Under the pieces are notes generated by a model. The model did no database searches, had not been told where the DNA came from, and saw nothing but the letters and a program-made list of their open reading frames with translations. A DNA stretch of 50,864 nt from Bdellovibrionales bacterium (lineage in GTDB: Bacteria > Bdellovibrionota > Bdellovibrionia > Bdellovibrionales > UBA1609): positions 1 to 50,864 of the forward strand of contig JANODG010000088.1 of the NCBI GenBank assembly GCA_031412575.1, written 5' to 3'. Shown here piece by piece: positions 22,745 through 48,896 of the stretch. A program made the translations under genes and the position numbers. Every line of letters begins with the position of its first letter. Position 1 is the first letter of the stretch.

Positions 22745-23416
22745 ATGAAAAAGTCGCCTCATGTTTTTTTACTTGAAGATAACAAAGAGCTTGGACTTTC
22801 TTTACAAGATAAGTTTACAGACTCCGGGTACACATCAAGTTGGTTCACTCATGTTGGCCAAGCAAAAACGTATCAAAATTTTCAAGACATTGATTTATTT
22901 ATATTGGATGTGGGTTTGCCCGATGGAACAGGTTTTGAATTTGCAGAGTGGTTAAAATCTCAAAAGGTAAAACAACCCATTATGTTTTTAACAGCGATGG
23001 GGCAGCCCGAAGATCGCTTAAAGGGTTATGAGCTTGGTGCAGAGGAATATATTCCAAAGCCGTTTTTATATAAAGAATTAGAAATGCGTATTAATCATGT
23101 GTTAGAAAATCACGCCAAGAATTTAATTTTCGAATTTAAAGATTTAGTGATTGATTTTGAATCCATGACTTTTAAATGGAGTAATGGCGAAATTATTTTT
23201 CCACAGTCTAAAGATCTTTTAATTTTAAAACTTTTAATTCAGAAATCGCCACAAGTTATTTCTCGGGACGAGATCTTAAATGAAGTGTGGGGAATGGATG
23301 ATTTTCCTACGGAAAGAACTGTGGATAATAGCATTGTGAGGTTGAGGCAGAGTTTGAAGGAGCATCAAGGGTGTTTGAAGTCGGTGCGTGGGATGGGGTA
23401 TCAATGGCTGGTTTGA
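22745..23416 (+). CDS. OmpR-family response regulator
   Basis: Receiver domain with LFILDVGLPDG and a winged-helix C-terminus (...VRLRQSL...VRGMGYQW). A 2-nt gap follows the kinase gene. Confidence 0.9.
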   Translation: MKKSPHVFLLEDNKELGLSLQDKFTDSGYTSSWFTHVGQAKTYQNFQDIDLFILDVGLPDGTGFEFAEWLKSQKVKQPIMFLTAMGQPEDRLKGYELGAEEYIPKPFLYKELEMRINHVLENHAKNLIFEFKDLVIDFESMTFKWSNGEIIFPQSKDLLILKLLIQKSPQVISRDEILNEVWGMDDFPTERTVDNSIVRLRQSLKEHQGCLKSVRGMGYQWLV

Positions 23417-23581
23417 TTTTTTGGTATCTTATTTTAATGAAAGTTTAATCTTCTTAAATTCCGACACGCCCATCCATGGGCTCTGCGCGAGCCGCCTGCG
23501 GCGGGCGCATCCTGCTCTCGCGAGGTCGGAATTTAAGAAGATTAAACTTTCATTAAAATAAGATTCCAAAAAATCAAACCA
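23409..23581. repeat. 173-bp near-perfect palindrome: 57-bp AT-rich arms (one mismatch) around a 59-bp GC-rich core
   Basis: Arm 23409-23465 is the reverse complement of 23525-23581, apart from T/A at one position. The core 23466-23524 contains CCGCC-TGC-GGCGG. On the minus strand this is the same GCCCGC-NGCA-GGCGG hairpin seen in the repeat family below. The left arm covers the last codons and stop of the response regulator. Confidence 0.9.
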
Positions 23582-23810
23582 AACGTGTGTATGGTTTATA
23601 CTTAGGATTTATTTTTTTATTAATTGTGTAGGTGAGTAGGATTTTAAAATAAGTAACTAAATATGTAAGTAAGTAAGTTAGTAAAAATTTAATTAATTGT
23701 TTAAAAATTTATTGGTTTTTTTTATTTATTAAAAAGATATTTTTTTAAAATTATTTGAAAATTTAAGGATATTAAAGCCTTGTTTTTGTGTGTTTAAGAA
23801 GGGAAGTCAG

Positions 23811-24830
23811 ATGAATTTGAAGTTTCAGGGTGCGTTGAGGAATGAGGTGCAGAAGTGTCCGCCGATTTGGTTTATGAGGCAGGCAGGAAGATATCATGGG
23901 CATTATCAGAATTTGAGATCGAAGCATTCCTTTATGGATTTGTGTAAGGTGCCGGAGTTGGCTTGCGAAGTGGCTTTGGGTCCTATTATGGATTTTGATT
24001 TTGATGTTTCTATTTTGTTTTCGGATTTACTTTTTCCGCTAGAAGCTATGGGTATGGGGCTTGATTATAAGCCAGGTCCTGTATTGGGATGGCATTTAAA
24101 TGCTTCGAACATACATAAATTAAAATCTGTTGAAGATTCTTTGGCTGGTGTTCAATTTCAAAAAGAGGCCGTCGTGTTAACTCGAAGAGCTTTACCTAAA
24201 GATAAAAGTCTTGTGGGTTTTGTCGGAGGGCCTTGGACTTTATTTAGTTATGCGGTCGAAGGAAGTCATAAAGATGGTTTAAAACAAACTAAAAAGTCTT
24301 TGGCCTTATTTAATCCTTTTTGTGAAAAATTACTTCCGCTTTTGATTGAAAACATCAAACTGCAATTAGCGGGTGGGGTTGAAGTGGTTATGATGTTTGA
24401 TACGTCTGTGGGTGAAATTAGCCCCTATATTTTTAAAGCTTACATTGAACCTGTGCTTTTAGGTTTAGCTCAAAAGTTTCCAGGTAAGTTAGGGTATTAC
24501 TCTAAAGGCACGACTGAGGCGCATTATTCGGTAGAACTAAAAAATGCGCCATGGGCTGGATTTGGATTTGATCACCGGTGGGATTTACCGAAGTGGTTAA
24601 AGACTGAAAAAAAGAAAGGTTTTGTTCAGGGTAATTTTGATCAGTTGTTTTTATTTCAAGATTTTTCTGACTTTAAAAAAACTTTGGACCAATATTTAAA
24701 AACTTACCAAGATATTTCTGTAGAGGCCCGTGCCGGATGGGTGTGTGCTTTAGGGCACGGTGTCCTTCCTGAAACTCCAGAAAAAAACGTTAAATACTTT
24801 GTCGAGCGCGTTAGAGAGGTGCTTTCATGA
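23811..24830 (+). CDS. hemE: uroporphyrinogen decarboxylase
   Basis: PPIWFMRQAGRY signature. The start is set at the ATG at 23811 (GGGAAG RBS). The ORF is open from the GTG at 23790. Confidence 0.92.
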   Translation: MNLKFQGALRNEVQKCPPIWFMRQAGRYHGHYQNLRSKHSFMDLCKVPELACEVALGPIMDFDFDVSILFSDLLFPLEAMGMGLDYKPGPVLGWHLNASNIHKLKSVEDSLAGVQFQKEAVVLTRRALPKDKSLVGFVGGPWTLFSYAVEGSHKDGLKQTKKSLALFNPFCEKLLPLLIENIKLQLAGGVEVVMMFDTSVGEISPYIFKAYIEPVLLGLAQKFPGKLGYYSKGTTEAHYSVELKNAPWAGFGFDHRWDLPKWLKTEKKKGFVQGNFDQLFLFQDFSDFKKTLDQYLKTYQDISVEARAGWVCALGHGVLPETPEKNVKYFVERVREVLS

Positions 24831-26170
24831 TTGATCTATTAAGTAAGTACGATGTTCCCGTACCACGTTACACTAGCTATCCTACAGTGCCTTACTGGCA
24901 AGATAACCCGACATCCAAAGAATGGCTTTCTTCCTTAGAAAAACATTTTTCTAAAGACGATGCCACTTGGTCTATGTACTTACACATTCCTTTTTGTGAA
25001 ACCTTATGTACCTTTTGTGGCTGTAACACCATCATTACAAAAGATCATAAACGTGAACATCCTTACGTAACTCACTTGTTATCGGAATGGAAAATCTATT
25101 TAGATAAAATGCCGTATATTAAAGATAAAGAATTAAAAGAGATCCACTTAGGTGGAGGAACTCCAACTTTTTTAAGTTCTGAAAATTTAGTTTTTTTGAT
25201 GACCAATCTTTTTAAAGATATTAAAAAATCCAAAGACTTTGAAGCTTCCATCGAAGTGGACCCAAGACGCACAACTTCTGATCAGCTTAAGGCCCTATAT
25301 GACATTGGGTTTCGCAGGGTCAGTATGGGTGTACAGGATTTTGATCCTGAAGTGCAACGCCTAGTAAACCGTATACAGCCAGAAAGTATGACTTTGAATT
25401 TAACCCAAAGAGCTAGGGCCATGGGTTACACTTCCGTCAATTATGATTTGATTTACGGTTTACCAAAACAAACCAAAGCAAGTATAAAGACACTTGCTGA
25501 AAAAACCTTAGAACATAAACCAGACCGCATAGCTTTATATTCTTTTGCCTTAGTGCCATGGATTAAACCTACGCATAGGCTTTACAAAGATGAAGATTTG
25601 CCAATGGGTTTAGAAAAGCGTGAGCTTTATGAAATCGCACGAACCATTTTACTTAAAGGTGGTTACAAAGAAATCGGAATGGATCACTTTGCATTGCCAA
25701 CGGATTCTTTATCGAAAGCTTTGCAAAGTAAAAAACTTCACAGAAATTTTATGGGTTACACTCATCACAGATCAGATATATTGTTGGGTTTAGGGGTAAG
25801 TTCGATTTCTGAAACTCCAGATTGTTTTCACCAAAATGAAAAAAAATATCAGATCTATCAAAGATTTATCGAGCAAGAACAAATTCCAACTCTTCGTGGG
25901 CATAAACTTTCTGATCAAGACCGAAAACGACGAGAACAGATTTTAAAACTCATGACCACTTGGGAAACTGTTTTAGATGATTTTAAACATGAAGAAGAAG
26001 TGAAAGTGTTTTTAAATGAACTGATTCAAGATGGTTTAGCTAAAGTCGAAAATCAAAAAATTATGGTGACAGAAAAAGGTCAGCCGTTTTTAAGAAACAT
26101 ATGCATGTCTTTAGATGAACGCTTGCGCTTAAATAAGCCAACTCAACAGGTGTTTTCAAAAGCGCTATGA
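24827..26170 (+). CDS. hemN: oxygen-independent coproporphyrinogen III oxidase (radical SAM)
   Basis: ATGA overlap with hemE. It has the HemN-specific PRYTSYPTVPYW motif and the radical-SAM motif CETLCTFCGC. Confidence 0.92.
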   Translation: MIDLLSKYDVPVPRYTSYPTVPYWQDNPTSKEWLSSLEKHFSKDDATWSMYLHIPFCETLCTFCGCNTIITKDHKREHPYVTHLLSEWKIYLDKMPYIKDKELKEIHLGGGTPTFLSSENLVFLMTNLFKDIKKSKDFEASIEVDPRRTTSDQLKALYDIGFRRVSMGVQDFDPEVQRLVNRIQPESMTLNLTQRARAMGYTSVNYDLIYGLPKQTKASIKTLAEKTLEHKPDRIALYSFALVPWIKPTHRLYKDEDLPMGLEKRELYEIARTILLKGGYKEIGMDHFALPTDSLSKALQSKKLHRNFMGYTHHRSDILLGLGVSSISETPDCFHQNEKKYQIYQRFIEQEQIPTLRGHKLSDQDRKRREQILKLMTTWETVLDDFKHEEEVKVFLNELIQDGLAKVENQKIMVTEKGQPFLRNICMSLDERLRLNKPTQQVFSKAL

Positions 26171-27372
26171 AGAAAGTCGCCATCATCGGATTTGGATTTT
26201 CTGGACTGTCTGCAGCTTGGGCTTTTGCAAGGCGCGGGCATGATGTGGAAGTTTTTGAAAAAGTATCAAAAATTGGTGGAATACTTCAAACTGAAAACTC
26301 TGAGTTTGGGATTATAGAAACCGCCGCCAATGCTATTTTACGCTCGGAAAACGTAAGCGTGATGGCTAAGGACTTCGATATCACCTGGGCTGAGCGAAAG
26401 AAATCTGCTAAAGCTAAATGGGTATTCACAGATAAACCAAGACGCTGGCCACTGACTACGATTGAGACTTTAAAGTTCATAAACCCGATGTTTAAATTAG
26501 CTCTGGGATCTGAAAGTATAAAACCAAAAAGTTTAGAGTCCGTCGCTAATTGGGGACAAAGGGTTTTTAAATCTCCAGTGTTTGTCGATCATCTTTTGGG
26601 TCCTGCACTTCAAGGAGTTTATGCAAATTCATCTGATCATCTTTCAGCCTCTTTATGTTTAAACACTTTTTTTGCCACCCAAAAAATAAGACATGAAGGA
26701 TCACACGCACCAAAAAAAGGAATGTCAGACTTTTTTAATTCTGGATTAAAATTTTTAACGAAACATAATAATTTTAAATTAAATCTAAATTCTCAAATCA
26801 CAAATTATGAAAATTTAGATGCAGACATCATTTTAGACACGCGCCCAGACCCTATAAACGTAAATTATTTAAGTGTTTATTCACTAACATTATTTTTCAG
26901 AACAGAAGACCGCCCGAAGTTTCAAGGGTTCGGTTGCTTGTTTGCGAAATCTAAAAGCGTACTAGGAGTCTTATTCAACTCCGACATCTTCGAAGACCGC
27001 ACTAAAGAAGACCTTTTTAGTGAGACCTGGATTATCACGCCCGCTGCAGGCGGAAAAGTTCCAGCGAAGAGCGCAGGGCGTGCGCAGCCGCCCGAAGAGC
27101 GCTCGAGTGAACTAGACATGATCAAACACACCCTCGCTTTTCGCGAACAAGCCTTCGGCATAAAATCCGAACCTGTATTCTCGAAGCTCACTCATTGGCC
27201 ACAAGGTATTCCCAACTACAGCCTTCAACATGAGACTTTCTTACAGGATAAATTTAAATTTGAAACTTCGATGGGACAGACTAAGATATTCAAAATCGGA
27301 AACTACACGGGGCAAATTGGTCTCAATAAAATGTTAGAAGAAAATGTAAAATTAGCTCGTAAATTCAGCTGA
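26167..27372 (+). CDS. hemY: FAD-dependent protoporphyrinogen oxidase carrying an in-frame repeat-element insertion
   Basis: ATGA overlap with hemN. It has the dinucleotide-binding N-terminus KVAIIGFGFSGLSAAW...EVFEK and sits between hemN and hemH. Residues ~292-318 (AAGGKVPAKSAGRAQPPEERSSELD) are encoded by the GC-rich repeat. Confidence 0.72.
   Translation: MKKVAIIGFGFSGLSAAWAFARRGHDVEVFEKVSKIGGILQTENSEFGIIETAANAILRSENVSVMAKDFDITWAERKKSAKAKWVFTDKPRRWPLTTIETLKFINPMFKLALGSESIKPKSLESVANWGQRVFKSPVFVDHLLGPALQGVYANSSDHLSASLCLNTFFATQKIRHEGSHAPKKGMSDFFNSGLKFLTKHNNFKLNLNSQITNYENLDADIILDTRPDPINVNYLSVYSLTLFFRTEDRPKFQGFGCLFAKSKSVLGVLFNSDIFEDRTKEDLFSETWIITPAAGGKVPAKSAGRAQPPEERSSELDMIKHTLAFREQAFGIKSEPVFSKLTHWPQGIPNYSLQHETFLQDKFKFETSMGQTKIFKIGNYTGQIGLNKMLEENVKLARKFS
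27039..27118 (+). repeat. GC-rich multi-hairpin repeat, copy A (intragenic, in-frame in hemY)
   Basis: GCCCGCTGCAGGCGGAAAAGTTCCAGCGAA-GAGCGC-A-GGGCGTGCGCAGCCGCCC-GAA-GAGCGCTC-GAGTGAACTAGACA. It shares both terminal boxes and the central hairpin with copies B-F. Confidence 0.9.
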
Positions 27373-27465: not shown

Positions 27466-28470
27466 ATGAAAAAAAAAGCAGTCATATTTTTAAATATTGG
27501 TTCACCTTCAACCACTGAAGTTAAAGATGTTAAAAAATATTTAAATCGATTTTTAATGGATCCTTATGTGATCAATCTTCCATCTTTTTTAAGATGGTTA
27601 TTTGTTACAAAACTTATCGTTCCAAGACGTGCTCCGAAATCGGCTGAAGCTTATAAAAAGGTTTGGACTAAAGATGGCTCTCCATTGGTGTCGATCACAA
27701 AGCGCCTGATGGAAAACTTAAATTTAATAGATACAGAACATGAATGGTTTTCAGCGATGAGATATTCTGAGCCTGAAGTGTTAGACGTGCTCGCTGAAAT
27801 AAAAAACAAAGGTTATGACAGCCTTGTTGTTTTCCCGGCCTATCCCCAGTACGCGGCTTCATCAACGGAATCCATTGTTCAGTATGTAAATGAAAAGTTA
27901 AAGGTTATGGGATGGAAACCTAACCTTTATCAAATTCAAGATTTTTATTTAGAGCCAGAGTTTATTGATAACATTGCTCTTGAAATTCCAAAAAATATAA
28001 ACCCTAAAGAATTTGATCATGTTCTTTTCTCATTTCACGGCCTTCCCGAAAGTCATCTTAAGAAAGTCAGCTCCACATGTCAGTTTTCAACGTGCTGTGA
28101 TCAAATCACCGAAGTGAATAAAAAATGTTACCGCGCCCAATGTTATCAAACGGCAAAAGCAGTGGCAGAAAAACTTGGTCTAGAAAAACGCAAGTGGACT
28201 ATGTCTTTTCAAAGTCGACTGGGTCCTGTCAAATGGATTGAACCTTATACCGATGTGGTTTCTGTCGAACAAGCAAAACAAAAAAATAGTCTTTTGGTGT
28301 TTTCACTGGCTTTTGTCACAGATTGTTTAGAGACTTTAGAAGAGTTAGACATTGGTTTAAGAGAAGATTTTTTCGAGCACGGTGGCGAAAAATTTGAACG
28401 TGTTCCTTGTTTAAATGAAAAATTTTATTCCGCTGTTGGAGTAGCGAAAAAAGCCATAAAACTAATATAA
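27466..28470 (+). CDS. hemH: ferrochelatase
   Basis: 334 aa with the N-terminal VIFLNIGSP, FSFHGLPE and a C-terminal ...DCLETLEELD segment, all typical of HemH. Confidence 0.92.
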   Translation: MKKKAVIFLNIGSPSTTEVKDVKKYLNRFLMDPYVINLPSFLRWLFVTKLIVPRRAPKSAEAYKKVWTKDGSPLVSITKRLMENLNLIDTEHEWFSAMRYSEPEVLDVLAEIKNKGYDSLVVFPAYPQYAASSTESIVQYVNEKLKVMGWKPNLYQIQDFYLEPEFIDNIALEIPKNINPKEFDHVLFSFHGLPESHLKKVSSTCQFSTCCDQITEVNKKCYRAQCYQTAKAVAEKLGLEKRKWTMSFQSRLGPVKWIEPYTDVVSVEQAKQKNSLLVFSLAFVTDCLETLEELDIGLREDFFEHGGEKFERVPCLNEKFYSAVGVAKKAIKLI

Positions 28471-32674: not shown

Positions 32675-33718
32675 ATGATTCTAAAAAAGGTTCAATTCGC
32701 CATTAAAGCGATTTTAGCATGGGTTTGTCTATCAAGCTTAGCTTTTGCTAATAGTACCGATGACAATTTTTGGCGTGATTTTCTAGCTAAGCATTACCCG
32801 CGAATAAGCTCTCAGGAAGCTTCACGATGGCAGTCACAAACTATAGAGATTTTTAAGTCTCAGGGGATTAATCATAGTCATCTGTCAAAGATTTCTCAGA
32901 GTGATTATTTTAAATTGTGGAATATCGCTTATGAATCGGCCCAAAGACCAAAGTTTGAGGATTTAATATTAATTGTTGATTTCTGGATTTCTGAATTAGG
33001 CTTAAAGAGTCTGAATCAATTTCTTAATAATACAACTCATTCAAACCCTTACCATATTTTTACAATAAATTTGGAAGGGTGGATTGCGTTTCGTGATCTG
33101 CTTTTAAATATTGGTGTTTTCGATGAAGATCCTCGCTCTGATAGAAGTGTGCAAGCATTTTTACTTAGATTTAATTGGGCGGAAGGAATTGCCACCAGCA
33201 AAAAAATGACCCCTGAGTTTTGGAATGGATGGAAAGATGTTTTTTTAAGTCATAAAACTATGAAATCTCAAGTGACCAAGTCTTTTAGTGTTTCTTACTT
33301 AAGTGATTATGCCAATCAAGATTTGATTCAACGATTATATGTTTCGCTGCCTCAGGGCTTACTTACATTATCGCTAAACAATGCAGATCTTATTTCCTCT
33401 GATTTGCTCATAGATTTTATAAACTCCGAAGATAAAATCTTGAGATCTGGGTTTGATGCCACGATCGAAGATACTCTTCGAACTCTAAATCAGTTGGTCT
33501 TAGGCAATATAAAAATATCGGGCAGACAATTCTCTGCAAGCGTTGCTAAATCGGTTGTTGCGAAATTAGTCTTTAGGGTCATGCGAGACCCTAATATAAT
33601 AAAAAACGAACGATATTTAAAATATGTAATTAAAGAAATTCTTTCGGATTTAAAAGAAGAAAGACTTCTAGAATCCACTAGGAGCGCGGGTAGAATCTGC
33701 GGGGAATATCTTAAATAA
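32675..33718 (+). CDS. hypothetical secreted protein
   Basis: 347 aa with signal peptide ...LAFA/NS. No family recognised. Confidence 0.5.
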   Translation: MILKKVQFAIKAILAWVCLSSLAFANSTDDNFWRDFLAKHYPRISSQEASRWQSQTIEIFKSQGINHSHLSKISQSDYFKLWNIAYESAQRPKFEDLILIVDFWISELGLKSLNQFLNNTTHSNPYHIFTINLEGWIAFRDLLLNIGVFDEDPRSDRSVQAFLLRFNWAEGIATSKKMTPEFWNGWKDVFLSHKTMKSQVTKSFSVSYLSDYANQDLIQRLYVSLPQGLLTLSLNNADLISSDLLIDFINSEDKILRSGFDATIEDTLRTLNQLVLGNIKISGRQFSASVAKSVVAKLVFRVMRDPNIIKNERYLKYVIKEILSDLKEERLLESTRSAGRICGEYLK

Positions 33719-33720
33719 GC

Positions 33721-33784
33721 ACACCGAAGGTGGAAAAACCAATCCGCGTGAGCTAGACAGCGCCGTATTGCGGCAGCCGGATTG
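33721..33784 (+). repeat. GC-rich repeat, truncated/degenerate copy
   Basis: CACC-GAA-GGTG hairpin plus GAAAAACC, fused to AATCCGCGTGAGCTAGACAGCGCC (compare AATCCGAGTGAACTAGACAGC in copy F). CAATCCG/CGGATTG pairing flanks it. Confidence 0.6.
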
Positions 33785-33874: not shown

Positions 33875-34804
33875 ATGAACGACATTAAAATTCAAAGAAA
33901 TTTGAAGGGGACAATTAAGGGGTTAGTTGTTTTGTTGTTAACATTAAATTTTAGTTTTATAGCAAATGCAGGACTGGTGTGTCCAAATTCAATACTCCGT
34001 GATTCTGCTTACGGTATGAGTAATTCACAATTAGTTCGTTTCAAGTCCAACCTTACAGAAAACAGAAACCGCGGTGTTACAAGAAGCGAAAAAGTGACCC
34101 GTGTTAAGGAAGCTGTCGAACATAGGAACGGAAATCTAGGATTTCCTGTTGGACACGATTCTCAGTCAGTTGCTGAAGCTGCAGTTTGGGCTGCAGGTTG
34201 TACAGGAAATGATTTCAGTGTTTTTGCTGCGATACTTAGTGTTGAATCTGGATATTGCGGAGACCTAAGAGGTGGTGGAGCAGACTCTGGATGTTCACAG
34301 TTATCTGTAAGAAAAGGAGCATCAGTTCACGAACTAAAAAGTCAGTTAAACTTAAAAGGCGGCGACGGTAAAGCAAACCCTGACGTGACCCAAGCGGCAA
34401 AAGACATGGTGATGACGTGTTTAAATAATGATAAATCCCAGTATGATGCTTTTATGACTTTTTATAATCGTCCGTTCGAAGAAATCAAAACCGATTTAAG
34501 AAGTGGCCAAAATGTTTACTTCGATGTGCTTATGGGCGCGCTCTACTTAAAATTTGTGACTGCCTTAGCTGGTGGATACATTGTTCCAGGGGATTCTCCG
34601 GGTGGGATCGCAAGATACAACGGCGGTGGAGTTCCAAATTACCTAGGCAAAGTTCAAGGACTTAACCAAGGAGAAGGTCGCTTAGAACAAATTTCAGGTA
34701 CATGTTATGAAGACAAATTTACACCTAACGTACTAGGCGAAGCCTGCGGAACTATGGGACTTAAAGGAGAACTGTGCAACAGCGTAAGTGGGATAGAGAT
34801 ATAG
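33875..34804 (+). CDS. secreted lytic-transglycosylase-like (SLT/lysozyme-like) protein
   Basis: 309 aa with a signal peptide. AILSVESGY (catalytic Glu-Ser), GCSQLS and ARYNGGG resemble the SLT motifs ES / GLMQ / AYNxG. The TAG stop abuts repeat copy B. Confidence 0.5.
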   Translation: MNDIKIQRNLKGTIKGLVVLLLTLNFSFIANAGLVCPNSILRDSAYGMSNSQLVRFKSNLTENRNRGVTRSEKVTRVKEAVEHRNGNLGFPVGHDSQSVAEAAVWAAGCTGNDFSVFAAILSVESGYCGDLRGGGADSGCSQLSVRKGASVHELKSQLNLKGGDGKANPDVTQAAKDMVMTCLNNDKSQYDAFMTFYNRPFEEIKTDLRSGQNVYFDVLMGALYLKFVTALAGGYIVPGDSPGGIARYNGGGVPNYLGKVQGLNQGEGRLEQISGTCYEDKFTPNVLGEACGTMGLKGELCNSVSGIEI

Positions 34805-34955
34805 CGCCCCACGCAGTGGGAAAAGTTCCGCCCGCTGCAGGCGGAAAAGTTCCAGCGAGCACTTGGGGGCCACTGCATGCATCGCTGTACAGCTCTCGCA
34901 TGTGGCCGTCGTGCGAAGCCGCCCAAAAGTGTGCGAGTGAACTAGACAGCGCAAC
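34805..34955 (+). repeat. GC-rich multi-hairpin repeat, copy B (long form with extra internal hairpin)
   Basis: Two [stem-GCA-stem]-GAAAAGTTCC boxes (CCCAC-GCA-GTGGG and CCGC-TGCAG-GCGG), then AGCGAG, the outer stem CACTT/AAGTG, an extra GGCCAC...GTGGCC hairpin, and GAGTGAACTAGACAGCGCAAC. Confidence 0.9.
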
Positions 34956-35877
34956 AAAAACAACTAACTATAATCTTAAAAAGATTATAGTTAGTTGTTT
35001 TTATTCACTCATCCTTCTCCTCAACCTCACATCCTGCAGCAAAGACCACACTTACATCAACGCCCCAAACCCAGACCCAAACTCTAGCTACCAAACCGGC
35101 CCCACATGGAATCGCGAAAAATTAATCCTAACCACAAATCTACCATTTCAAATTTTAAACATGAACCGTGCTTATAAGGGTGACGTGGGCGTCGGCGTTT
35201 ACTTAGGGGAATTTAAGGGAAAACACATTGGCATGACGGCGGCCCACCTTTACCCAGATCTGACATCTTGCAAAGACGAAGTTTCTTTCTTAATTCAAGA
35301 TCAAGAACAATTTCATTACTACCCTTGCGACGGGTGGAGTTTCACACTTAAAGATAACGACATTATGTTTTTTGAAATCAGCATTCAATCCGCAGACATA
35401 AACTTATTGTCCCCAGTGAACGTATCAAAAAATCCCACATCAATTAATCAGCAGCTGAAACTTATAACCTTTGAACGAAATTTCGAAGATCAGACAGTTG
35501 AACTTTATTCCGATTCAAGCACCGAATGTAAAACATTAAGCAATGAAGCTAAGCAGATCGCCGATCCTGATATCAGCGACGACCGTATGATCACCTCGTG
35601 GTCAATGGCCATGGGCTGTGATTCGAGGCACGGGGATTCGGGTGCCCCTGTTTACAATGAAGTCCAGCAATTAGTAGGTCTTCTTTGGACGGGTAAATAT
35701 CCTAAAAATCAATCCAGCCAAAGTTTTAGTTCTTTAACTGAAACTCAACTGTGGGAAGACTATAATTATTTTGTTCCCGTTGAAAAAATCAAAGAAGAAC
35801 TTGGGAAATTAATGGTTAGCTCTCAAGTGAAAACTTCCGACCAAAATACTTTATCCCAAATCTTTAACTCTTTTTAA
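34900..35877 (+). CDS. trypsin-like (S1) serine peptidase, probable lipoprotein; start uncertain
   Basis: The triad contexts are MTAAHLY (His), DNDIMFF (Asp) and GDSGAPVY (Ser), with a lipobox-like LLLNLTSC. The only in-frame ATG/GTG upstream of the signal peptide (34774, 34816, 34900) lie inside repeat copy B. Confidence 0.65.
   Translation: MWPSCEAAQKCASELDSATKTTNYNLKKIIVSCFYSLILLLNLTSCSKDHTYINAPNPDPNSSYQTGPTWNREKLILTTNLPFQILNMNRAYKGDVGVGVYLGEFKGKHIGMTAAHLYPDLTSCKDEVSFLIQDQEQFHYYPCDGWSFTLKDNDIMFFEISIQSADINLLSPVNVSKNPTSINQQLKLITFERNFEDQTVELYSDSSTECKTLSNEAKQIADPDISDDRMITSWSMAMGCDSRHGDSGAPVYNEVQQLVGLLWTGKYPKNQSSQSFSSLTETQLWEDYNYFVPVEKIKEELGKLMVSSQVKTSDQNTLSQIFNSF
34956..35007. terminator. very strong hairpin: perfect 22-bp stem, 3-nt loop, A5/T5 flanks (bidirectional terminator-like)
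   Basis: AAAAACAACTAACTATAATCTT (34956-34977) is the exact reverse complement of 34981-35002. The right arm also encodes KKIIVSCF of the downstream ORF. Confidence 0.75.
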
Positions 35878-38274: not shown

Positions 38275-38422
38275 TTGAACATAAGCTTAAGGCTTCGACG
38301 AACGTCTAGACTGAATTAATAATTATTTAATAAAATTTATCCAAATCAAAAATATCAACTCTGTAAGTTTAAGAATTAGAATTAAATTTTTATGTTTGAT
38401 CTTTTTATGTCGATATAAAACC

Positions 38423-40483
38423 ATGAGCCAATCCGCACTACAAAAAAATGAAGCCGAAGTCATTGAAGATCAAATTTTAAACCCGGAAGAGGAATCTGCC
38501 CAAATTGCAAATTTTGGTTTGGAAAAACCGGCAGGTCAAACTTCCAATAATAATCCAGAAAATCCCTCTGAAGCTTTTTTAACTTTTTTAAATCTTTACG
38601 AAAAAGATAAAAAAGAGGGGATTCCAAATTCTAAAACTGACATTGATGATCTAAATTCCAAGGAGCTTTTTTTAAATGATGTGGCCAGCCAACTTAAATC
38701 AGAATTTATTGGTCTAGATCAACAAATTGATAAAATCATAAATACATTACGTCCTTGGTATTTAATCCCTAAATCTTTAAATAAGCCCGTAATTTTATCT
38801 TTGTGGGGGATGTCTGGTGTTGGTAAAACAAGTTTGGTTTATCGCTTGGTTGAAAAATTAAATTTCGAAAGTACTTTTTTTAAATATGATTTGGGTAAAA
38901 TTTCTGATGTTCAAAGCGGAATGGGATATCATCTTTCATATTTTGCTAATCGCCAAAGTGTTTTATTCTTTGATGAAGTTCAAATGGCCAGAACCTTAGA
39001 TGCTGTAGGGCATGATATTGATCGCCCCCAACTTCGTGATTTCTGGACTTTATTAGACACGGGAATGCTTCCTATTTTATTCACTGAAATTGTTAGAATG
39101 AGAAACGACATCAAAAGCAGATATCAAGGTTTTGTCGCGAATCCTTATGGGCCTGAACTTTTAATGACAGATTATGATTTTGATTATTTAGCACCGGTCT
39201 TAGGGTTAAGCCGGGACTATAATACGCTTTTAAAAAAGTGTGTTGTCGACGACACCAATCGTTTGATGAATTGGATCATTAACGAAATAGAAAAAAAGAT
39301 TTCAAAAAACGTTTATGAAGATCACACCAAGGCTTTAATCATTTTAGCAGGTAACATTGACGAAGCGTATTCGCAGTTGATGACGGTAGAGCCTGATGAG
39401 TTTACGGCCGAAGAGCTTAAAGAAAATTTGAACACTGTGACGCCTACAAAAATTAAAAAGGGTTTACTGACTCGATTTAGAACCGAGCAAGTCGCAAGAA
39501 TGGGGACTTCTTTAATATTGTTTCCCACACCTTCAGAAAGTTCGTATCAAGGAATTATTAAGCAAAAGCTTTCTAGAATTGAAAACAAAATCAAAAAGGA
39601 TTTTGTTTTTGAATTTAAATTCGAACAATCAGTGCACGATATGATTTATAAAAAGGGTGTCATTCCCACTCAAGGTGTCCGCCCCATTTTATCTATGATC
39701 TCTGAACAGGTGGAATCTAGATTACCAACTTGGATTGTTGAAAGTGCAAAAAATGGATTTTCAGAATACAGCGTGAACTTCGACGGAGCTAAAAATGCTT
39801 TTACAATCAGTCACAAAAATAAAACCATATTTACAGATGTGCTATTAACGGAAATTGAAAGTATCAAAATTAAAATTCCTGATGCTAAATTCATTGAATA
39901 CTTAGCGATACACGAAGCTGCACATTTGGTTGTAGGGATTAGCTTAATGGGGATGTTGCCTCAACGAATAATTTTTAAAGAAAGTTTTGCTGGAAATGTT
40001 ATGCCTCAGGTCAGATTTAGACCTACATCCCTTTTAACTGCAAAAATTTCCATGGATTTTGTCGCAATGAACTTAGCGGGCTATGCGGCTGAAATTAAAA
40101 AGTACGGTAAGGAAGGTTTAAGTTCAGGGGCAACTATGGATCTTAAATCTGCAACAGGTTTAGTATCCCAAATGATCATGGAAATGGGTATGGGATCGCA
40201 CATAGGTGTCACACTGCCGCACCCAGATCTGGTTCACAACATCAAATCGATGCAAGCGGCCGACGACGAAGCCAAAGAAAAACTTCTTAAACAGGCCTAC
40301 GTGACTGCAGAACAAGAACTTAAAACACAATCCTTGTTTTATGATCACGTTGTTGAAGAACTAAAAACAAAACACTGTTTACCTCAAGAGCGCTTAGCCG
40401 AATTGCTGTTCAAACACTTCGAAGCCACAGACGAAGAAAAAGTAAATATCGTCAATCGTAAAAACCACAAGTATATGGATTAA
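38423..40483 (+). CDS. soluble AAA+/P-loop ATPase fused to an FtsH-type (M41) zinc-metallopeptidase domain
   Basis: Walker A is GMSGVGKTS and Walker B is VLFFDEVQ. The C-terminal AIHEAAHLVVG (HEXXH) ...NLAGYAAEIKKYG...SGATMDLKSATGLVSQMIMEMGMG parallels the FtsH protease domain. The N-terminus has no TM helix. The start is set at MSQSAL. Confidence 0.78.
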   Translation: MSQSALQKNEAEVIEDQILNPEEESAQIANFGLEKPAGQTSNNNPENPSEAFLTFLNLYEKDKKEGIPNSKTDIDDLNSKELFLNDVASQLKSEFIGLDQQIDKIINTLRPWYLIPKSLNKPVILSLWGMSGVGKTSLVYRLVEKLNFESTFFKYDLGKISDVQSGMGYHLSYFANRQSVLFFDEVQMARTLDAVGHDIDRPQLRDFWTLLDTGMLPILFTEIVRMRNDIKSRYQGFVANPYGPELLMTDYDFDYLAPVLGLSRDYNTLLKKCVVDDTNRLMNWIINEIEKKISKNVYEDHTKALIILAGNIDEAYSQLMTVEPDEFTAEELKENLNTVTPTKIKKGLLTRFRTEQVARMGTSLILFPTPSESSYQGIIKQKLSRIENKIKKDFVFEFKFEQSVHDMIYKKGVIPTQGVRPILSMISEQVESRLPTWIVESAKNGFSEYSVNFDGAKNAFTISHKNKTIFTDVLLTEIESIKIKIPDAKFIEYLAIHEAAHLVVGISLMGMLPQRIIFKESFAGNVMPQVRFRPTSLLTAKISMDFVAMNLAGYAAEIKKYGKEGLSSGATMDLKSATGLVSQMIMEMGMGSHIGVTLPHPDLVHNIKSMQAADDEAKEKLLKQAYVTAEQELKTQSLFYDHVVEELKTKHCLPQERLAELLFKHFEATDEEKVNIVNRKNHKYMD

Positions 40484-40484
40484 A

Positions 40485-40599
40485 GCCCGCAGAAGGAAAA
40501 GTTCCGCCCGCGGCAGGCGGAAAAGTTCCAGCGAGTTGGCCTTAAGGGCGTGCGAAGCCGCCCTAAAGGAAGGCCAACGAGTGAACTAGACAGCGCAAC
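40485..40599 (+). repeat. GC-rich multi-hairpin repeat, copy C (archetypal)
   Basis: GCCCGCAGAAGGAAAAGTTCC-GCCCGCGGCAGGCGGAAAAGTTCC-AGCGAG-TTGGCCTT-AA-GGGCGTGCGAAGCCGCCC-TAAAGG-AAGGCCAA-C-GAGTGAACTAGACAGCGCAAC. It begins 1 nt after the TAA stop of the upstream gene. Confidence 0.92.
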
Positions 40600-43625: not shown

Positions 43626-43741
43626 CCCCACGCAGTAGGAAAAGTTCCGCTCCGCGCAGCGGGAAAAGTTCCAGCGAAGTGCGCAGGGCGTGCGCAGCCG
43701 CCCGAAAAGCGCACGAGTGAACTAGACATCGCCCCCGCGCA
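43625..43741 (+). repeat. GC-rich multi-hairpin repeat, copy D
   Basis: CCCCAC-GCA-GTAGG-AAAAGTTCC, CCGC-GCA-GCGG-GAAAAGTTCC, AGCGAA, the outer stem GTGCGC/GCGCAC around GGGCGTGCGCAGCCGCCC, then GAGTGAACTAGACA. Confidence 0.92.
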
Positions 43742-43747
43742 CAAAGC

Positions 43748-43781
43748 AAAAAAAAGACACCTATCCAGGTGTCTTTTTTTT
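43748..43781 (+). terminator. intrinsic terminator (A8-GACACCT-ATCC-AGGTGTC-T8)
   Basis: Perfect 7-bp GC-containing stem with a 4-nt loop and a T8 tail. It lies immediately after repeat copy D. Confidence 0.8.
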
Positions 43782-46705: not shown

Positions 46706-47890
46706 TTAATTAGCAGGATTAAAAACTATACCTTCAAATACTCTTTCGTTGTTTTCATTATTACGAATCATATAAGAAAAAGGTCCATTGATTTTCATGG
46801 AAGTTACCATTGGAGCGCTAACTACTTCCATTCCTCCAATTGTTACTGCTGCGGCCTCTGCACCTTCTTCATTAACAATGATTTTAGCTTTCTGGAGAAT
46901 TTCAGAAATTTGAAGATTTTCGCTGGACATGTTTGATAATGCCCCAGCTGCGAATAAACTCGAAAGACCTACTTGATTTAATTTATCTTCGATACTCTTA
47001 ATTTCGGTCTCAATAGTAAATTTTGGAATTTCTAAAAAAAGATCTCCACCTAAATTACTTTTTTCAAGTTCGGAATTGGCTTTGGAATTAATAATATAAT
47101 CCTTAAAAATTCTTTGCAAACGCTTTCCAGATTTGTATGAAAATCCAGGATCTTGATAGTTTTCATCATCATAATCGTATTCTTTATACTGTGCGGGCAT
47201 TGCGATGATCATCGAATATTTGTCACCTTTAAATGGTAGCTCTAAAACTACAACTTTATCTTTTTCATTATACGCAAAATTGTAAGCTTCGCCAGACGTC
47301 ATAGTGTCGACTAAACCTGCGCCATGAAAATCCTTAGGCTCGGTTAAAGCTTCGTTAAATTTATCCTTCCATTCTCCTTTGAAATAAATGGCGTTTGCCA
47401 AGATAGTCGCTAAATCTGGGGTTACGAAATCTTGATTAATAACTTTTGTTATTAAATTATTTGTGTTGTCTGCGGCCCAAGAGTTTACGCTATCGACAAC
47501 TTCACTTTTATTATTCACGTCCATAATTTCCGGCACGACGGAAAATTTTGAAGACACATCTGAAATGTAGCTTGGAAGAAGATTGTATTTTTGATCGACC
47601 CAAATTTGATAGCCCACTAATACACTTACGCCAGGAGATTGCTCTTTTAATGCAGAGATATCTTTAGCTTTGTTTTCCAAAGATGTTCCATTCCAATAAG
47701 AAACCAATTCATTCTGTTGCTTCTGACCTAGGCCGAAGCTGATTAAAGATAATAAACCATCGACAGATGTGTTTGAAAAAACGTAATTTTCTTTTTGCTT
47801 TAATTTTTCGGCCATAACCGTTTCACTTAAGGTGTTGGCTTGGACTGCAGTACTTATAAATAATATGGCTACTAAATATTTAAAACTCAT
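46706..47890 (-). CDS. secreted serpin (serine protease inhibitor)
   Basis: 394 aa with a signal peptide. It has the NAIYFKGEWK serpin motif, the hinge/RCL EEGAEAAAVTIGGMEVVSAP, and a C-terminal ...F...I....G.V.NP pattern. Confidence 0.88.
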   Translation of the reverse strand: MSFKYLVAILFISTAVQANTLSETVMAEKLKQKENYVFSNTSVDGLLSLISFGLGQKQQNELVSYWNGTSLENKAKDISALKEQSPGVSVLVGYQIWVDQKYNLLPSYISDVSSKFSVVPEIMDVNNKSEVVDSVNSWAADNTNNLITKVINQDFVTPDLATILANAIYFKGEWKDKFNEALTEPKDFHGAGLVDTMTSGEAYNFAYNEKDKVVVLELPFKGDKYSMIIAMPAQYKEYDYDDENYQDPGFSYKSGKRLQRIFKDYIINSKANSELEKSNLGGDLFLEIPKFTIETEIKSIEDKLNQVGLSSLFAAGALSNMSSENLQISEILQKAKIIVNEEGAEAAAVTIGGMEVVSAPMVTSMKINGPFSYMIRNNENNERVFEGIVFNPAN

Positions 47891-47980: not shown

Positions 47981-48080
47981 GAAAAGTTCCAGCGAGCACT
48001 TGGGCGTGCGTACGGAAGTCCCAGCGAAGCGGACTGAACGGTAGCCGCCCGAAAAGCGCACGAGTGAACTAGACAGCGCC
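47981..48080 (+). repeat. GC-rich repeat, copy E (chimeric, with a nested 33-nt hairpin in the central loop)
   Basis: GAAAAGTTCCAGCGAG-CACTTGGGCGTGCG-[TACGGAAGTCCCAGCGAAGCGGACTGAACGGTA]-GCCGCCCGAAAAGCGCAC-GAGTGAACTAGACAGCGCC. The 5' half resembles copy B. The 3' half is identical to copy D. Confidence 0.85.
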
Positions 48081-48165
48081 GTCCGCAGGACGAAAAGTTC
48101 CAGCGAGGACTGGCAAGGGCGTGCGAAGCCGCCCGAGAAAGCCAATCCGAGTGAACTAGACAGCA
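48081..48165 (+). repeat. GC-rich repeat, copy F (tandem to E)
   Basis: GTCC-GCA-GGAC-GAAAAGTTCC-AGCGAG-GACTGGC-AA-GGGCGTGCGAAGCCGCCC-GAGAAA-GCCAATC-C-GAGTGAACTAGACAGC. Confidence 0.9.
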
Positions 48166-48179
48166 AGCCACACGCAAGC

Positions 48180-48896
48180 TTACCCCTGCGGCCAATCCCC
48201 CTTGATAGCCTTATCAAGAAGTTTATTAAGCCTCAACGCCTGCCTAAAATCTTCGATCACAGCATCACTAAACTTAGCTGAAGAAAAATTCTTCAATTTG
48301 ATCTCTTTCAAAACCACAAAGTTTTTTAATTTTATCCAAGCGATATCGGGGTGATCTTCAGAAAATCCTTTGGGAACTCGGCTAGCGGTATTGTCTATCG
48401 AAAACCCACTTTCAAAACGCGACTTAAATTCAGGATCTTTAAAAAGTTCATGAAAAGGTTCTGCATCTTCATTGATGGCTTCGCGGATTCGTCGGGTTTG
48501 CGGGGATGTGGGTTGCCATAAACCGCCAGCCAGCAAAATTTTTTGTTCTTCGTTCGGGAATAGTCCAAAGAATAAATGAGGATTACTTTCGAAGCGCGAT
48601 TTAGAAGGCCTAGATGCAATCATCGAAATCCAGTCTTTGTATTGAGGCTGTCCTCCTGCCACTTTAAAATCAGGACGTTTGATGCGGGCTAAGCCTTTGC
48701 TTGGAAAGTGATAATCGGGAGCTAAAGGCTTTAAAGCATTTTTAACTTTCTCAGCCAATTCAATAAAAGGTTTTTTTAAAACCTCTTCGTACTCTTCCAC
48801 ATTTTTATCTAACCAATCGGACTTTTTTTGTCGACCTGCTTTGACTAAAAAATCAAGAGAGGCTTTTGAAAATTTAAAAGATTTTGTTTTTGTCAT
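48180..48896 (-). CDS. DUF2461 (TIGR02453) family protein
   Basis: 238 aa. The N-terminal FSKASLDFLVKAGRQKKSDWLDKNVEEYEE and overall length match the DUF2461 pattern. Confidence 0.7.
   Translation of the reverse strand: MTKTKSFKFSKASLDFLVKAGRQKKSDWLDKNVEEYEEVLKKPFIELAEKVKNALKPLAPDYHFPSKGLARIKRPDFKVAGGQPQYKDWISMIASRPSKSRFESNPHLFFGLFPNEEQKILLAGGLWQPTSPQTRRIREAINEDAEPFHELFKDPEFKSRFESGFSIDNTASRVPKGFSEDHPDIAWIKLKNFVVLKEIKLKNFSSAKFSDAVIEDFRQALRLNKLLDKAIKGDWPQG

Follow-up and report, generated by a model that had tools for sequence, protein, structure and literature searches.

An in-frame palindromic repeat inside the hemY gene of a Bdellovibrionales bacterium

Intragenic palindromic repeats in known systems

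Intragenic palindromic repeats are rare but established, and the repeat treated here, found in frame within the haem-biosynthesis gene hemY, adds a new family from Bdellovibrionales. The hemY copy (copy A) lies in a stretch of 50,864 nt from a Bdellovibrionales bacterium (UBA1609; assembly GCA_031412575.1, contig JANODG010000088.1, positions 1-50,864, forward strand), which is called the window throughout. Rickettsia palindromic elements (RPEs; RPE-1 to RPE-10; Ogata et al. 2000, 2002) are the precedent for this situation: as far as the cited accounts describe them, they fuse in frame with many housekeeping open reading frames (ORFs) (PMC10969869, PMC3733652). Literature searches returned no description of such repeats in Bdellovibrionota.

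Within what the available descriptions of RPEs cover, the likeness extends to several features. Both are multi-copy palindromic repeats, a sizeable fraction of which sits in frame in unrelated, open housekeeping genes; both encode a family-specific peptide, and the insertions would probably suit the protein fold. By the same descriptions, nearly half of the copies are in frame in three of the ten RPE families, as compared with about 15% of full copies here, and RPEs measure about 100-150 bp versus 47-110 nt for the hemY-type repeat. The host belongs to the phylum Bdellovibrionota and is probably free-living or predatory, while RPEs reside in obligate intracellular Alphaproteobacteria. The hemY-type repeat is also modular (one or two GCA-loop hairpins, each followed by GAAAAGTTCC, and then a three-tier stem), strictly sense-oriented when in frame and, between genes, tightly bound to the position after a stop codon. 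It is thus a functional analogue of RPEs and not a member of their family, being set apart by the distribution of its motif in 185,579 species genomes. The analogy had been drawn in the initial annotation of the locus, and it is strengthened by the relative GFS_9291, where the same element is read through in an 841-codon ORF, a Mur ligase, PheT and, as two copies, MutS, each time in frame. The annotation also spoke of an independent case of the Rickettsia phenomenon; the phenomenon is indeed alike, but records of palindromic repeats in frame extend far outside Rickettsia (PMC3733652), and the novelty is smaller than was implied.

Repetitive extragenic palindromes (REPs) offer a second comparison. 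REPs tagged with GTAG or CGTC are found within about 20 bp of the 3´ ends of upstream ORFs (Di Nocera et al. 2013, PMC3733652), and in several species REPs lie wholly inside ORFs, notably those of DNA-repair genes and tRNA synthetases (PMC3733652). With REPs and their composite arrays, bacterial interspersed mosaic elements (BIMEs), our repeat shares imperfect palindromes with compensatory changes, tandem or inverted grouping and the location near the upstream ORF 3´ end. Intragenic copies in repair genes and tRNA synthetases are matched here by MutS and PheT. Unlike REPs, the hemY-type repeat has the ends GAAAAGTTCCAGCGA and GAGTGAACTAGACAG and no GTAG/CTAC or CGTC/GACG tag, and its unit is longer and composite, compared with a single hairpin of 20-40 bp. 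No gene for a REP-associated tyrosine transposase (RAYT) was found among the ORFs of locus L013 of the relatives and the window neighbours.

[quoted passage not shown] They too are small non-autonomous repeats that form stable RNA hairpins and can fuse in frame with host ORFs. The hemY-type repeat differs from them by its imperfect terminal inverted repeats and the lack of a consistent target-site duplication.

A further parallel is provided by GC clusters and the 'byp' elements of Magnusiomyces in yeast mitochondria, which are GC-rich hairpin inserts in AT-rich genes; byps are skipped by the ribosome and need no reading frame. Copies of our repeat likewise form hairpins, are rich in GC and sit within coding regions in a genome rich in AT. 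Unlike byps, however, they are consistently open and frame-preserving, which indicates translation.

The repeat in hemY

The hemY ORF (401 codons) is uninterrupted through copy A, in agreement with the initial annotation, which had placed a repeat in frame inside this gene. Membership of copy A in the family was established with a covariance model (CM) built from 36 copies, with which the window was scanned with filters off. The hemY copy scores 82 bits (E about 1e-19) and is the second best of exactly six full copies in the window, which also holds one decayed copy (Table 1). Its closest relative is copy D, to which it is 93% identical over 74 nt (43656-43729). Comparison with the other copies sets its boundaries 1-2 nt off the positions first proposed (27039-27118). 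The annotation had remarked on residues of foreign-looking composition; in the DNA, GC content is 65% at 27040-27119 and 36.8% in the whole window.

RNA folding of the hemY copy yields a free energy of -32.9 kcal/mol (z -2.0) with all three stems perfect; with DNA parameters, the fold of this single copy is no better than those of shuffled sequences (z -0.46). Its core of 67 nt begins with K-V-P-A in another frame, and the leading module restores the frame. One sense frame of copy A is stop-free at the 3´ end, and this is the one used in hemY; the others meet TGA or TAG. Because the sense strand lacks a T-run behind the hairpin, an intrinsic terminator was rejected for it (none was called), and transcription of the operon should still reach hemH. 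Three further candidates were likewise discarded from reading of the sequence alone. A 4-nt 'target duplication' (ATCA) at hemY would break the frame and is unseen at other copies. A canonical kink-turn in P1 was rejected too. Integron attC sites have the GTT and AAC boxes in the reverse order to that found here, and the hosts are housekeeping genes, for which reasons identity with them was rejected.

The HemY of the window was aligned with 115 homologues (116 sequences in all). Residues 292-309 (PAAGGKVPAKSAGRAQPP) are occupied in 0 of the 115, and the flanks on both sides, 285-291 (SETWIIT) and 318-329, are occupied in all of them. HemY proteins of both other repeat-bearing genomes (P0003 from GFS_9291 and P0012 from JTS-AC215) are among those without the insert. 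Copy A encodes 26-27 residues (P292-D317), much as was first estimated, but only 18 of these (292-309) are a net gain over orthologues, because the element-encoded EERSSELD (310-317) sits in columns natively filled in 102-113 of the 115 homologues. The clean 27-residue indel expected in the annotation is therefore not what is seen; along with the insertion, about 8 native residues of the loop were lost or replaced. The length of this loop varies among HemY homologues, one of which (P0014) carries an unrelated 16-residue insertion in it. Downstream of the insert, the invariant or near-invariant R326, P349, Y351, N379, G382, G385 and L386 are retained. An exhaustive HMMER search with the insert peptide (30 residues) against 1.8 billion representatives gave 0 matches, which is uninformative as the query is too short.

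Structure prediction, one of the checks suggested in the annotation, gave a consistent picture. The AlphaFold2 model computed on this alignment has a mean predicted local distance difference test (pLDDT) of 94.6 and a predicted template modelling score of 0.92. The sole weak stretch, at about residues 291-310 (block means 64 and 57), is a coil between the strand 283-290 and the helix 309-330, while the remainder is a confident protoporphyrinogen oxidase (PPO) fold. Profile alignment to 2IVD and 1SEZ likewise places the insert in the loop between a conserved strand and the next helix. The insert most likely adds a probably disordered loop at the protein surface, as suggested by low pLDDT and the predicted secondary structure.

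Foldseek with the HemY model gave PPO structures as top matches (1SEZ, 2IVD/2IVE, 3I6D and 3NKS, E 1e-22 to 1e-26), the HemY profile matches PPO chains with E 3e-45, and the glycines of the N-terminal FAD/NAD dinucleotide-binding motif (G8, G10, G13) are invariant in the 116-sequence alignment. The nearest homologues in a search of 5.8 billion proteins are only 51-59% identical. Coupling of hemY to hemN, with hemH following, was noted from the start, and it agrees with the ATGA at 26167-26170, in which the hemN stop and the hemY start overlap, and with the Pfam identities. The order hemE-hemN-hemY-hemH is kept in four relatives, with hemA, hemC and hemL upstream. HemY is the fastest-evolving gene product of the operon: between the window and GFS_9291, its identity is 57%, in comparison with 79% for HemE, 79% for HemN and 76% for HemH.

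Insertion into coding sequence is not limited to hemY. GFS_9291 has in-frame copies in MutS, PheT, a Mur-ligase family protein and an 841-codon ORF (Table 1), and Pfam together with alignments to PDB structures supports the identity of these hosts. In PheT, 56 residues stand in place of 11 in the E. coli protein. Both repeat blocks of MutS fall within variable regions, and the nearest orthologue has gaps in their place; for copy 1, a net insertion relative to Taq MutS could not be shown. The Mur-ligase copy has lost its 5´ half and hairpin in DNA and retains CGAGTGAACTAGACAG and the frame; it has the look of an old insertion, now a fossil within the coding sequence. All in-frame copies, hemY included, are sense-oriented (8/8) and end with AGT GAA CTA GAC, i.e. 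S-E-L-D (8/8). The uniform ending follows from the other two sense frames meeting TGA or TAG in GAGTGAACTAG. The antisense strand offers two open frames, yet it is never used. No in-frame copy contains a stop, and in the CM the in-frame copies score as high as the intergenic ones. Core length is divisible by 3 in six of the seven in-frame copies detected by CM and in 9 of 36 intergenic ones (Fisher p=0.0045); these six cores begin with K-S-S-S-E. Such enrichment of frame-preserving lengths points to translation and not to splicing or bypass.

The repeat family and its surroundings

A repeat is built of a core and of none, one or two small GCA-triloop hairpins, each with GAAAAGTTCC behind it. 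The core runs from GAAAAGTTCCAGCGA through P2, which is a variable stem, and P3, the inner hairpin (typically GGGCGTGCGAAGCCGCCC), to the complement of P2 and (C/T)GAGTGAACTAGACAG; its ends pair as P1 (AGUUC/GAACU and two further pairs). In the alignment of 36 copies, the extremities GTTCCA... and ...AGNGAACTAGAC are invariant, and the conserved ends read GAAAAGUUCCAGCGA and GAGUGAACUAGACAG. They are the same even between genomes whose orthologous proteins are just 57-79% identical. Terminal inverted repeats are imperfect, with AGTTC..CG common to both ends. The composite unit spans 47-110 nt and has no conserved GTAG/CTAC or CGTC/GACG; the minimal versions of 47 nt have the conserved ends around one simple hairpin. 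The leading small hairpin of copy A also precedes copies B, C and D.

The CM gave 52 matches in 255 kb from three genomes. Consensus folding based on MAFFT alone mis-registered P2, and a CM-based alignment was used instead. In the 52 aligned copies, 94.5% of cells are paired, compared with 81% in shuffles and 32-47% with slid partners. Compensatory changes occur at 13 of 20 pairs overall (6/6 in P2, 5/7 in P3), and double-change cells in P2 and P3 number 131 as opposed to 42 in shuffles; as the alignment was fitted to the model itself, these figures are tilted somewhat towards the structure. Counts of G.U and A.C in P2 and P3 (18 vs 15) do not discriminate selection at the RNA level from that at the DNA level. 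Rfam gave no match to the whole window at the gathering threshold, nor to 26900-27250 at E up to 10.

Table 1. Positions of the haem genes, the repeat copies and their parts in the window, and in-frame copies in GFS_9291
Feature	Position	Strand	Remarks
hemE	23790-24830		Pfam URO-D
hemN	24827-26170	+	Oxygen-independent coproporphyrinogen oxidase, radical SAM (Pfam)
hemY	26167-27372	+	Protoporphyrinogen oxidase, PgoX-type, 401 aa, host of the insertion; Pfam NAD_binding_8 and Amino_oxidase
hemH	27466-28470	+	Ferrochelatase, downstream operon partner (Pfam)
Copy A	27038-27119	+	In frame, residues about 292-317 (PAAGGKVPAKSAGRAQPPEERSSELD); repeat family, CM 82 bits
Copy A, leading small hairpin module	27041-27053	+	CCGCU-GCA-GGCGG, then conserved GAAAAGTTCC; RNA fold
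Copy A, core	27053-27119	+	5´ end GAAAAGTTCCAGCGA, three-tier stem, 3´ end CGAGTGAACTAGACAT
Copy A, P1	27057-27065 with 27107-27113
Copy A, P2	27069-27074 with 27099-27104
Copy A, P3	27076-27083 with 27087-27093
Decayed copy	33719-33775	+	Right after TAA of ORF 32675-33718
Copy B	34805-34950	+	Two small hairpin modules and core with about 40 nt extra in hairpin; extragenic; starts right after TAG of ORF 33875-34804
Copy C	40484-40597	+	Starts right after TAA of ORF 38396-40483 (AAA/M41 protease-like)
Copy D	43626-43733	+	Closest relative of copy A; starts right after TAG of ORF 42450-43625
Copies E1 and E2	47981-48163	+	Tandem, antisense to flanking minus-strand genes
MutS (GFS_9291)			863 aa; two in-frame copies, KKSSSEGAGRAKPTEERLSELDS and KKSSSEPAAGAEAPTKCAERASELDS; Pfam domains I, III, IV, V
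PheT (GFS_9291)			858 aa; one in-frame copy, GKSSSEPTAGAEAPTKSAERASELDK; Pfam domains either side of insert
Mur-ligase family protein (GFS_9291)	L009 6379-7875		498 aa; DNA-decayed copy ending ...SASELDSD; Pfam Mur ligase domains
841-codon ORF (GFS_9291)			Three in-frame copies

The family appears to be confined to a narrow lineage. Among 185,579 species (one genome each), the motif was found in just two Bdellovibrionales metagenome-assembled genomes (MAGs), GFS_9291 (JAYUKW01), where it has many loci, and JTS-AC215 (JBGSLV01). Relaxing the pattern in GTDB genomes added loci and no further genomes, a scan of JGI metagenomes gave 0 matches, and hem neighbourhoods of other relatives (two of about 20 kb, one of about 11 kb) hold no copies. 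In JTS-AC215 (L067 9872-10000), two and a half tandem 47-nt mini-copies fill the hemN-hemY spacer, the last running into the hemY start; the same operon is thus struck independently at a different place, the two genes overlapping by ATGA in the window instead.

Between genes, one arrangement of the repeat prevails. At 20-22 of 28 intergenic sites it shares the orientation of the gene upstream, and the start of the element, or of its leading hairpin, mostly lies 0-7 nt past the stop of that gene, e.g. [TAA]|GAAAAGTTCC. Copies B, C and D of the window obey this placement and E1/E2 do not. Copies B and D sit between a stop codon and a terminator-like hairpin, in the case of copy D an intrinsic terminator at 43748-43781. 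Several copies seem at first to form ORF N-termini (copy B in ORF 34774-35877, and those in L003, L006 and L010); we rejected them as intragenic and consider them probably extragenic, because each lies behind the stop codon of the preceding gene and has a signal peptide or a plausible start further downstream. The same caution regarding apparent N-terminal copies was given by Di Nocera et al. (PMC3733652). Tandem or inverted groups are present in L002, L005, L019, L022, L024 and L067. The ORFs between the inverted copies in L013, considered as candidates for a mobilising gene, code for an M15 peptidase-like protein and a small coiled-coil protein. No transposase or Y1_Tnp domain was found among L013 ORFs and window neighbours, the sequence covered being one 51-kb contig and about 230 kb of relatives. 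Some copies have TAA or TAG on both sides, inconsistently and not at hemY, and no target-site duplication is consistent.

Certain copies show individual peculiarities. The decayed copy keeps the small hairpin, GAAAAACC and GCGTGAGCTAGACAGCGCC, its central hairpin being gone. Composite copies are represented by copy B (34844-34949), with its extra nucleotides, and by L005 2144-2258 of GFS_9291, which resembles insertion of a copy in a copy. Within the P3 loop of E1 (47981-48076) there is an apparent nested mini-copy, GAAGTCCCAGCGAAGCGGACTGAAC. E1 and E2, the sole antisense-oriented pair, are flanked by a serpin-family gene (46706-47890, minus strand) and a DUF2461 gene (48180-48896, minus strand). 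Read on the minus strand, they are hairpins followed by CTTTTC, and speculatively they could act as a weak terminator for the DUF2461 gene.

Two other repeats of the window are unlike this family. At 23409-23581, about 200 nt upstream of hemE, is a different palindromic element with 57-nt AT-rich arms that are 98% complementary and a 59-nt GC-rich centre; with its length of about 173 bp, it resembles a MITE. At 795-1032, an A-rich direct repeat with a period of 12 nt (AAAAAAGTAACT and similar) would encode a low-complexity segment rich in Lys, Ala and Val.

Origin and significance of the insertion

We suggest that a REP/MITE-like palindromic repeat, non-autonomous and belonging to a family found only in a narrow group of Bdellovibrionales, landed in sense orientation among the codons of a length-tolerant loop of hemY and in the single stop-free sense frame. 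Copy A would then be transcribed and translated together with hemY. The net gain of 18 residues would form a hydrophilic, probably disordered loop rich in Ala, Gly, Pro and Lys, and the last eight codons (EERSSELD) would take over the start of the next helix. We regard this explanation as a whole as quite probable. On the grounds of the conserved residues and the model, the enzyme would most likely retain the segment and stay functional, and the element may be mobile now or may have been so once.

Several points weigh against this explanation. Its support comes from sequence and modelling, and solvent exposure of the loop is read off low pLDDT and secondary structure. The nearest HemY orthologue is just 59% identical, so that there is no true empty-site allele by which to fix the exact boundaries or the age of the event. 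As an element of 81-82 nt gives only 18 additional residues, one has to assume a second event, in which the native loop lost about 24 nt. Finally, mobility is deduced from copy number and distribution, with no transposase and no consistent target-site duplication found in the sequence covered.

The regularities of orientation and placement could also mean that the family is a lineage-specific module exapted by the host: an RNA or DNA hairpin whose ends are recognised by a conserved protein and which acts at gene 3´ ends, perhaps on the stability, processing or 3´-end fate of mRNA, on the termination of translation or on ribosome rescue. Either mechanism or selection would have brought it, in sense orientation, to its position behind stop codons. 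Sense copies in frame would then put the shared hairpin or the ...SELD peptide into HemY, MutS and PheT as a regulatory handle. Such a role is compatible with the insertion proposed above and, though we consider it unlikely, several observations agree with it, namely co-orientation and post-stop placement at most intergenic sites (20-22/28, mostly 0-7 nt after the stop), exclusive sense orientation of the in-frame copies (8/8) in spite of two open antisense frames, ends that are invariant between genomes with proteins 57-79% identical, a hairpin upheld by compensatory changes, and CM scores of in-frame copies that match the intergenic ones. On the other hand, REPs of many bacteria are placed alike near the 3´ ends of upstream ORFs with no specific function demonstrated (PMC3733652). 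The ratio of G.U to A.C (18 vs 15) bears no sense-strand RNA signature, host genes and insertion sites are mutually unrelated, the Mur-ligase copy has decayed in DNA, and Rfam has no match.

The other possibilities concern the fate of hemY itself. That the insertion inactivated the gene, leaving a young pseudogene whose frame is open by chance, appears improbable. Copy A is structurally intact (82 bits, perfect stems) and could be recent, and HemY is the fastest-evolving protein of the operon (57% vs 76-79%), but the insertion is frame-preserving in the one stop-free sense frame, and behind it 84 codons stay open in a 37% GC genome with family-invariant residues kept. The remainder of HemY is modelled at pLDDT above 90, like insertions exist in the indispensable PheT and MutS of a relative, and frame-preserving lengths are enriched among intragenic copies. 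Even less probable, in our view, is the removal of the segment by splicing of the RNA or of the protein, or its skipping in a programmed translational bypass, either of which would leave mature HemY without the insert. In some yeast mitochondria, ribosomes skip over mobile inserts rich in GC (the byps of Magnusiomyces), and copy A has a strong local hairpin (-32.9 kcal/mol) and foreign composition. Removal, however, would need no open frame-preserving insert, yet all intragenic copies are stop-free and six of seven are divisible by 3, compared with 25% of intergenic ones. There is no Rfam match to an intron or ribozyme even at E up to 10, 26 residues are far too short for an intein, no in-frame stop follows a take-off codon, and the decayed Mur-ligase copy is in frame despite its lost hairpin. 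The initial annotation had left such removal or bypass as an alternative, which is disfavoured by these data, as nothing in the segment is intron-, intein- or bypass-like. An assembly artefact is scarcely credible. The contig is of metagenome type and assemblers can be misled by repeats into a misjoin or collapsed read; nevertheless, both flanks are collinear parts of one hemY in correct order and frame, copy A has variants of its own (e.g. the compensatory GAGCGC/GCGCTC stem vs GTGCGC/GCGCAC in copy D), and the phenomenon recurs in another genome, assembled independently.

Taken together, the family offers a natural test of the ways in which essential enzymes put up with inserted loops or make use of them. 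It is a warning for annotation and for protein families derived from MAGs too, since GC-rich blocks in AT-rich genes are here repeats and not domain innovations. The family is clean to study, having invariant ends, covarying hairpins, one usable frame that stamps ...SELD on its hosts and a near-obligatory placement after stop codons. Its strict sense orientation, post-stop placement and invariant ends would gain in interest should they prove functional. If the orientation and stop-codon rules reflect function and not insertion bias, the repeat could become a tractable model for post-transcriptional control of the REP type.

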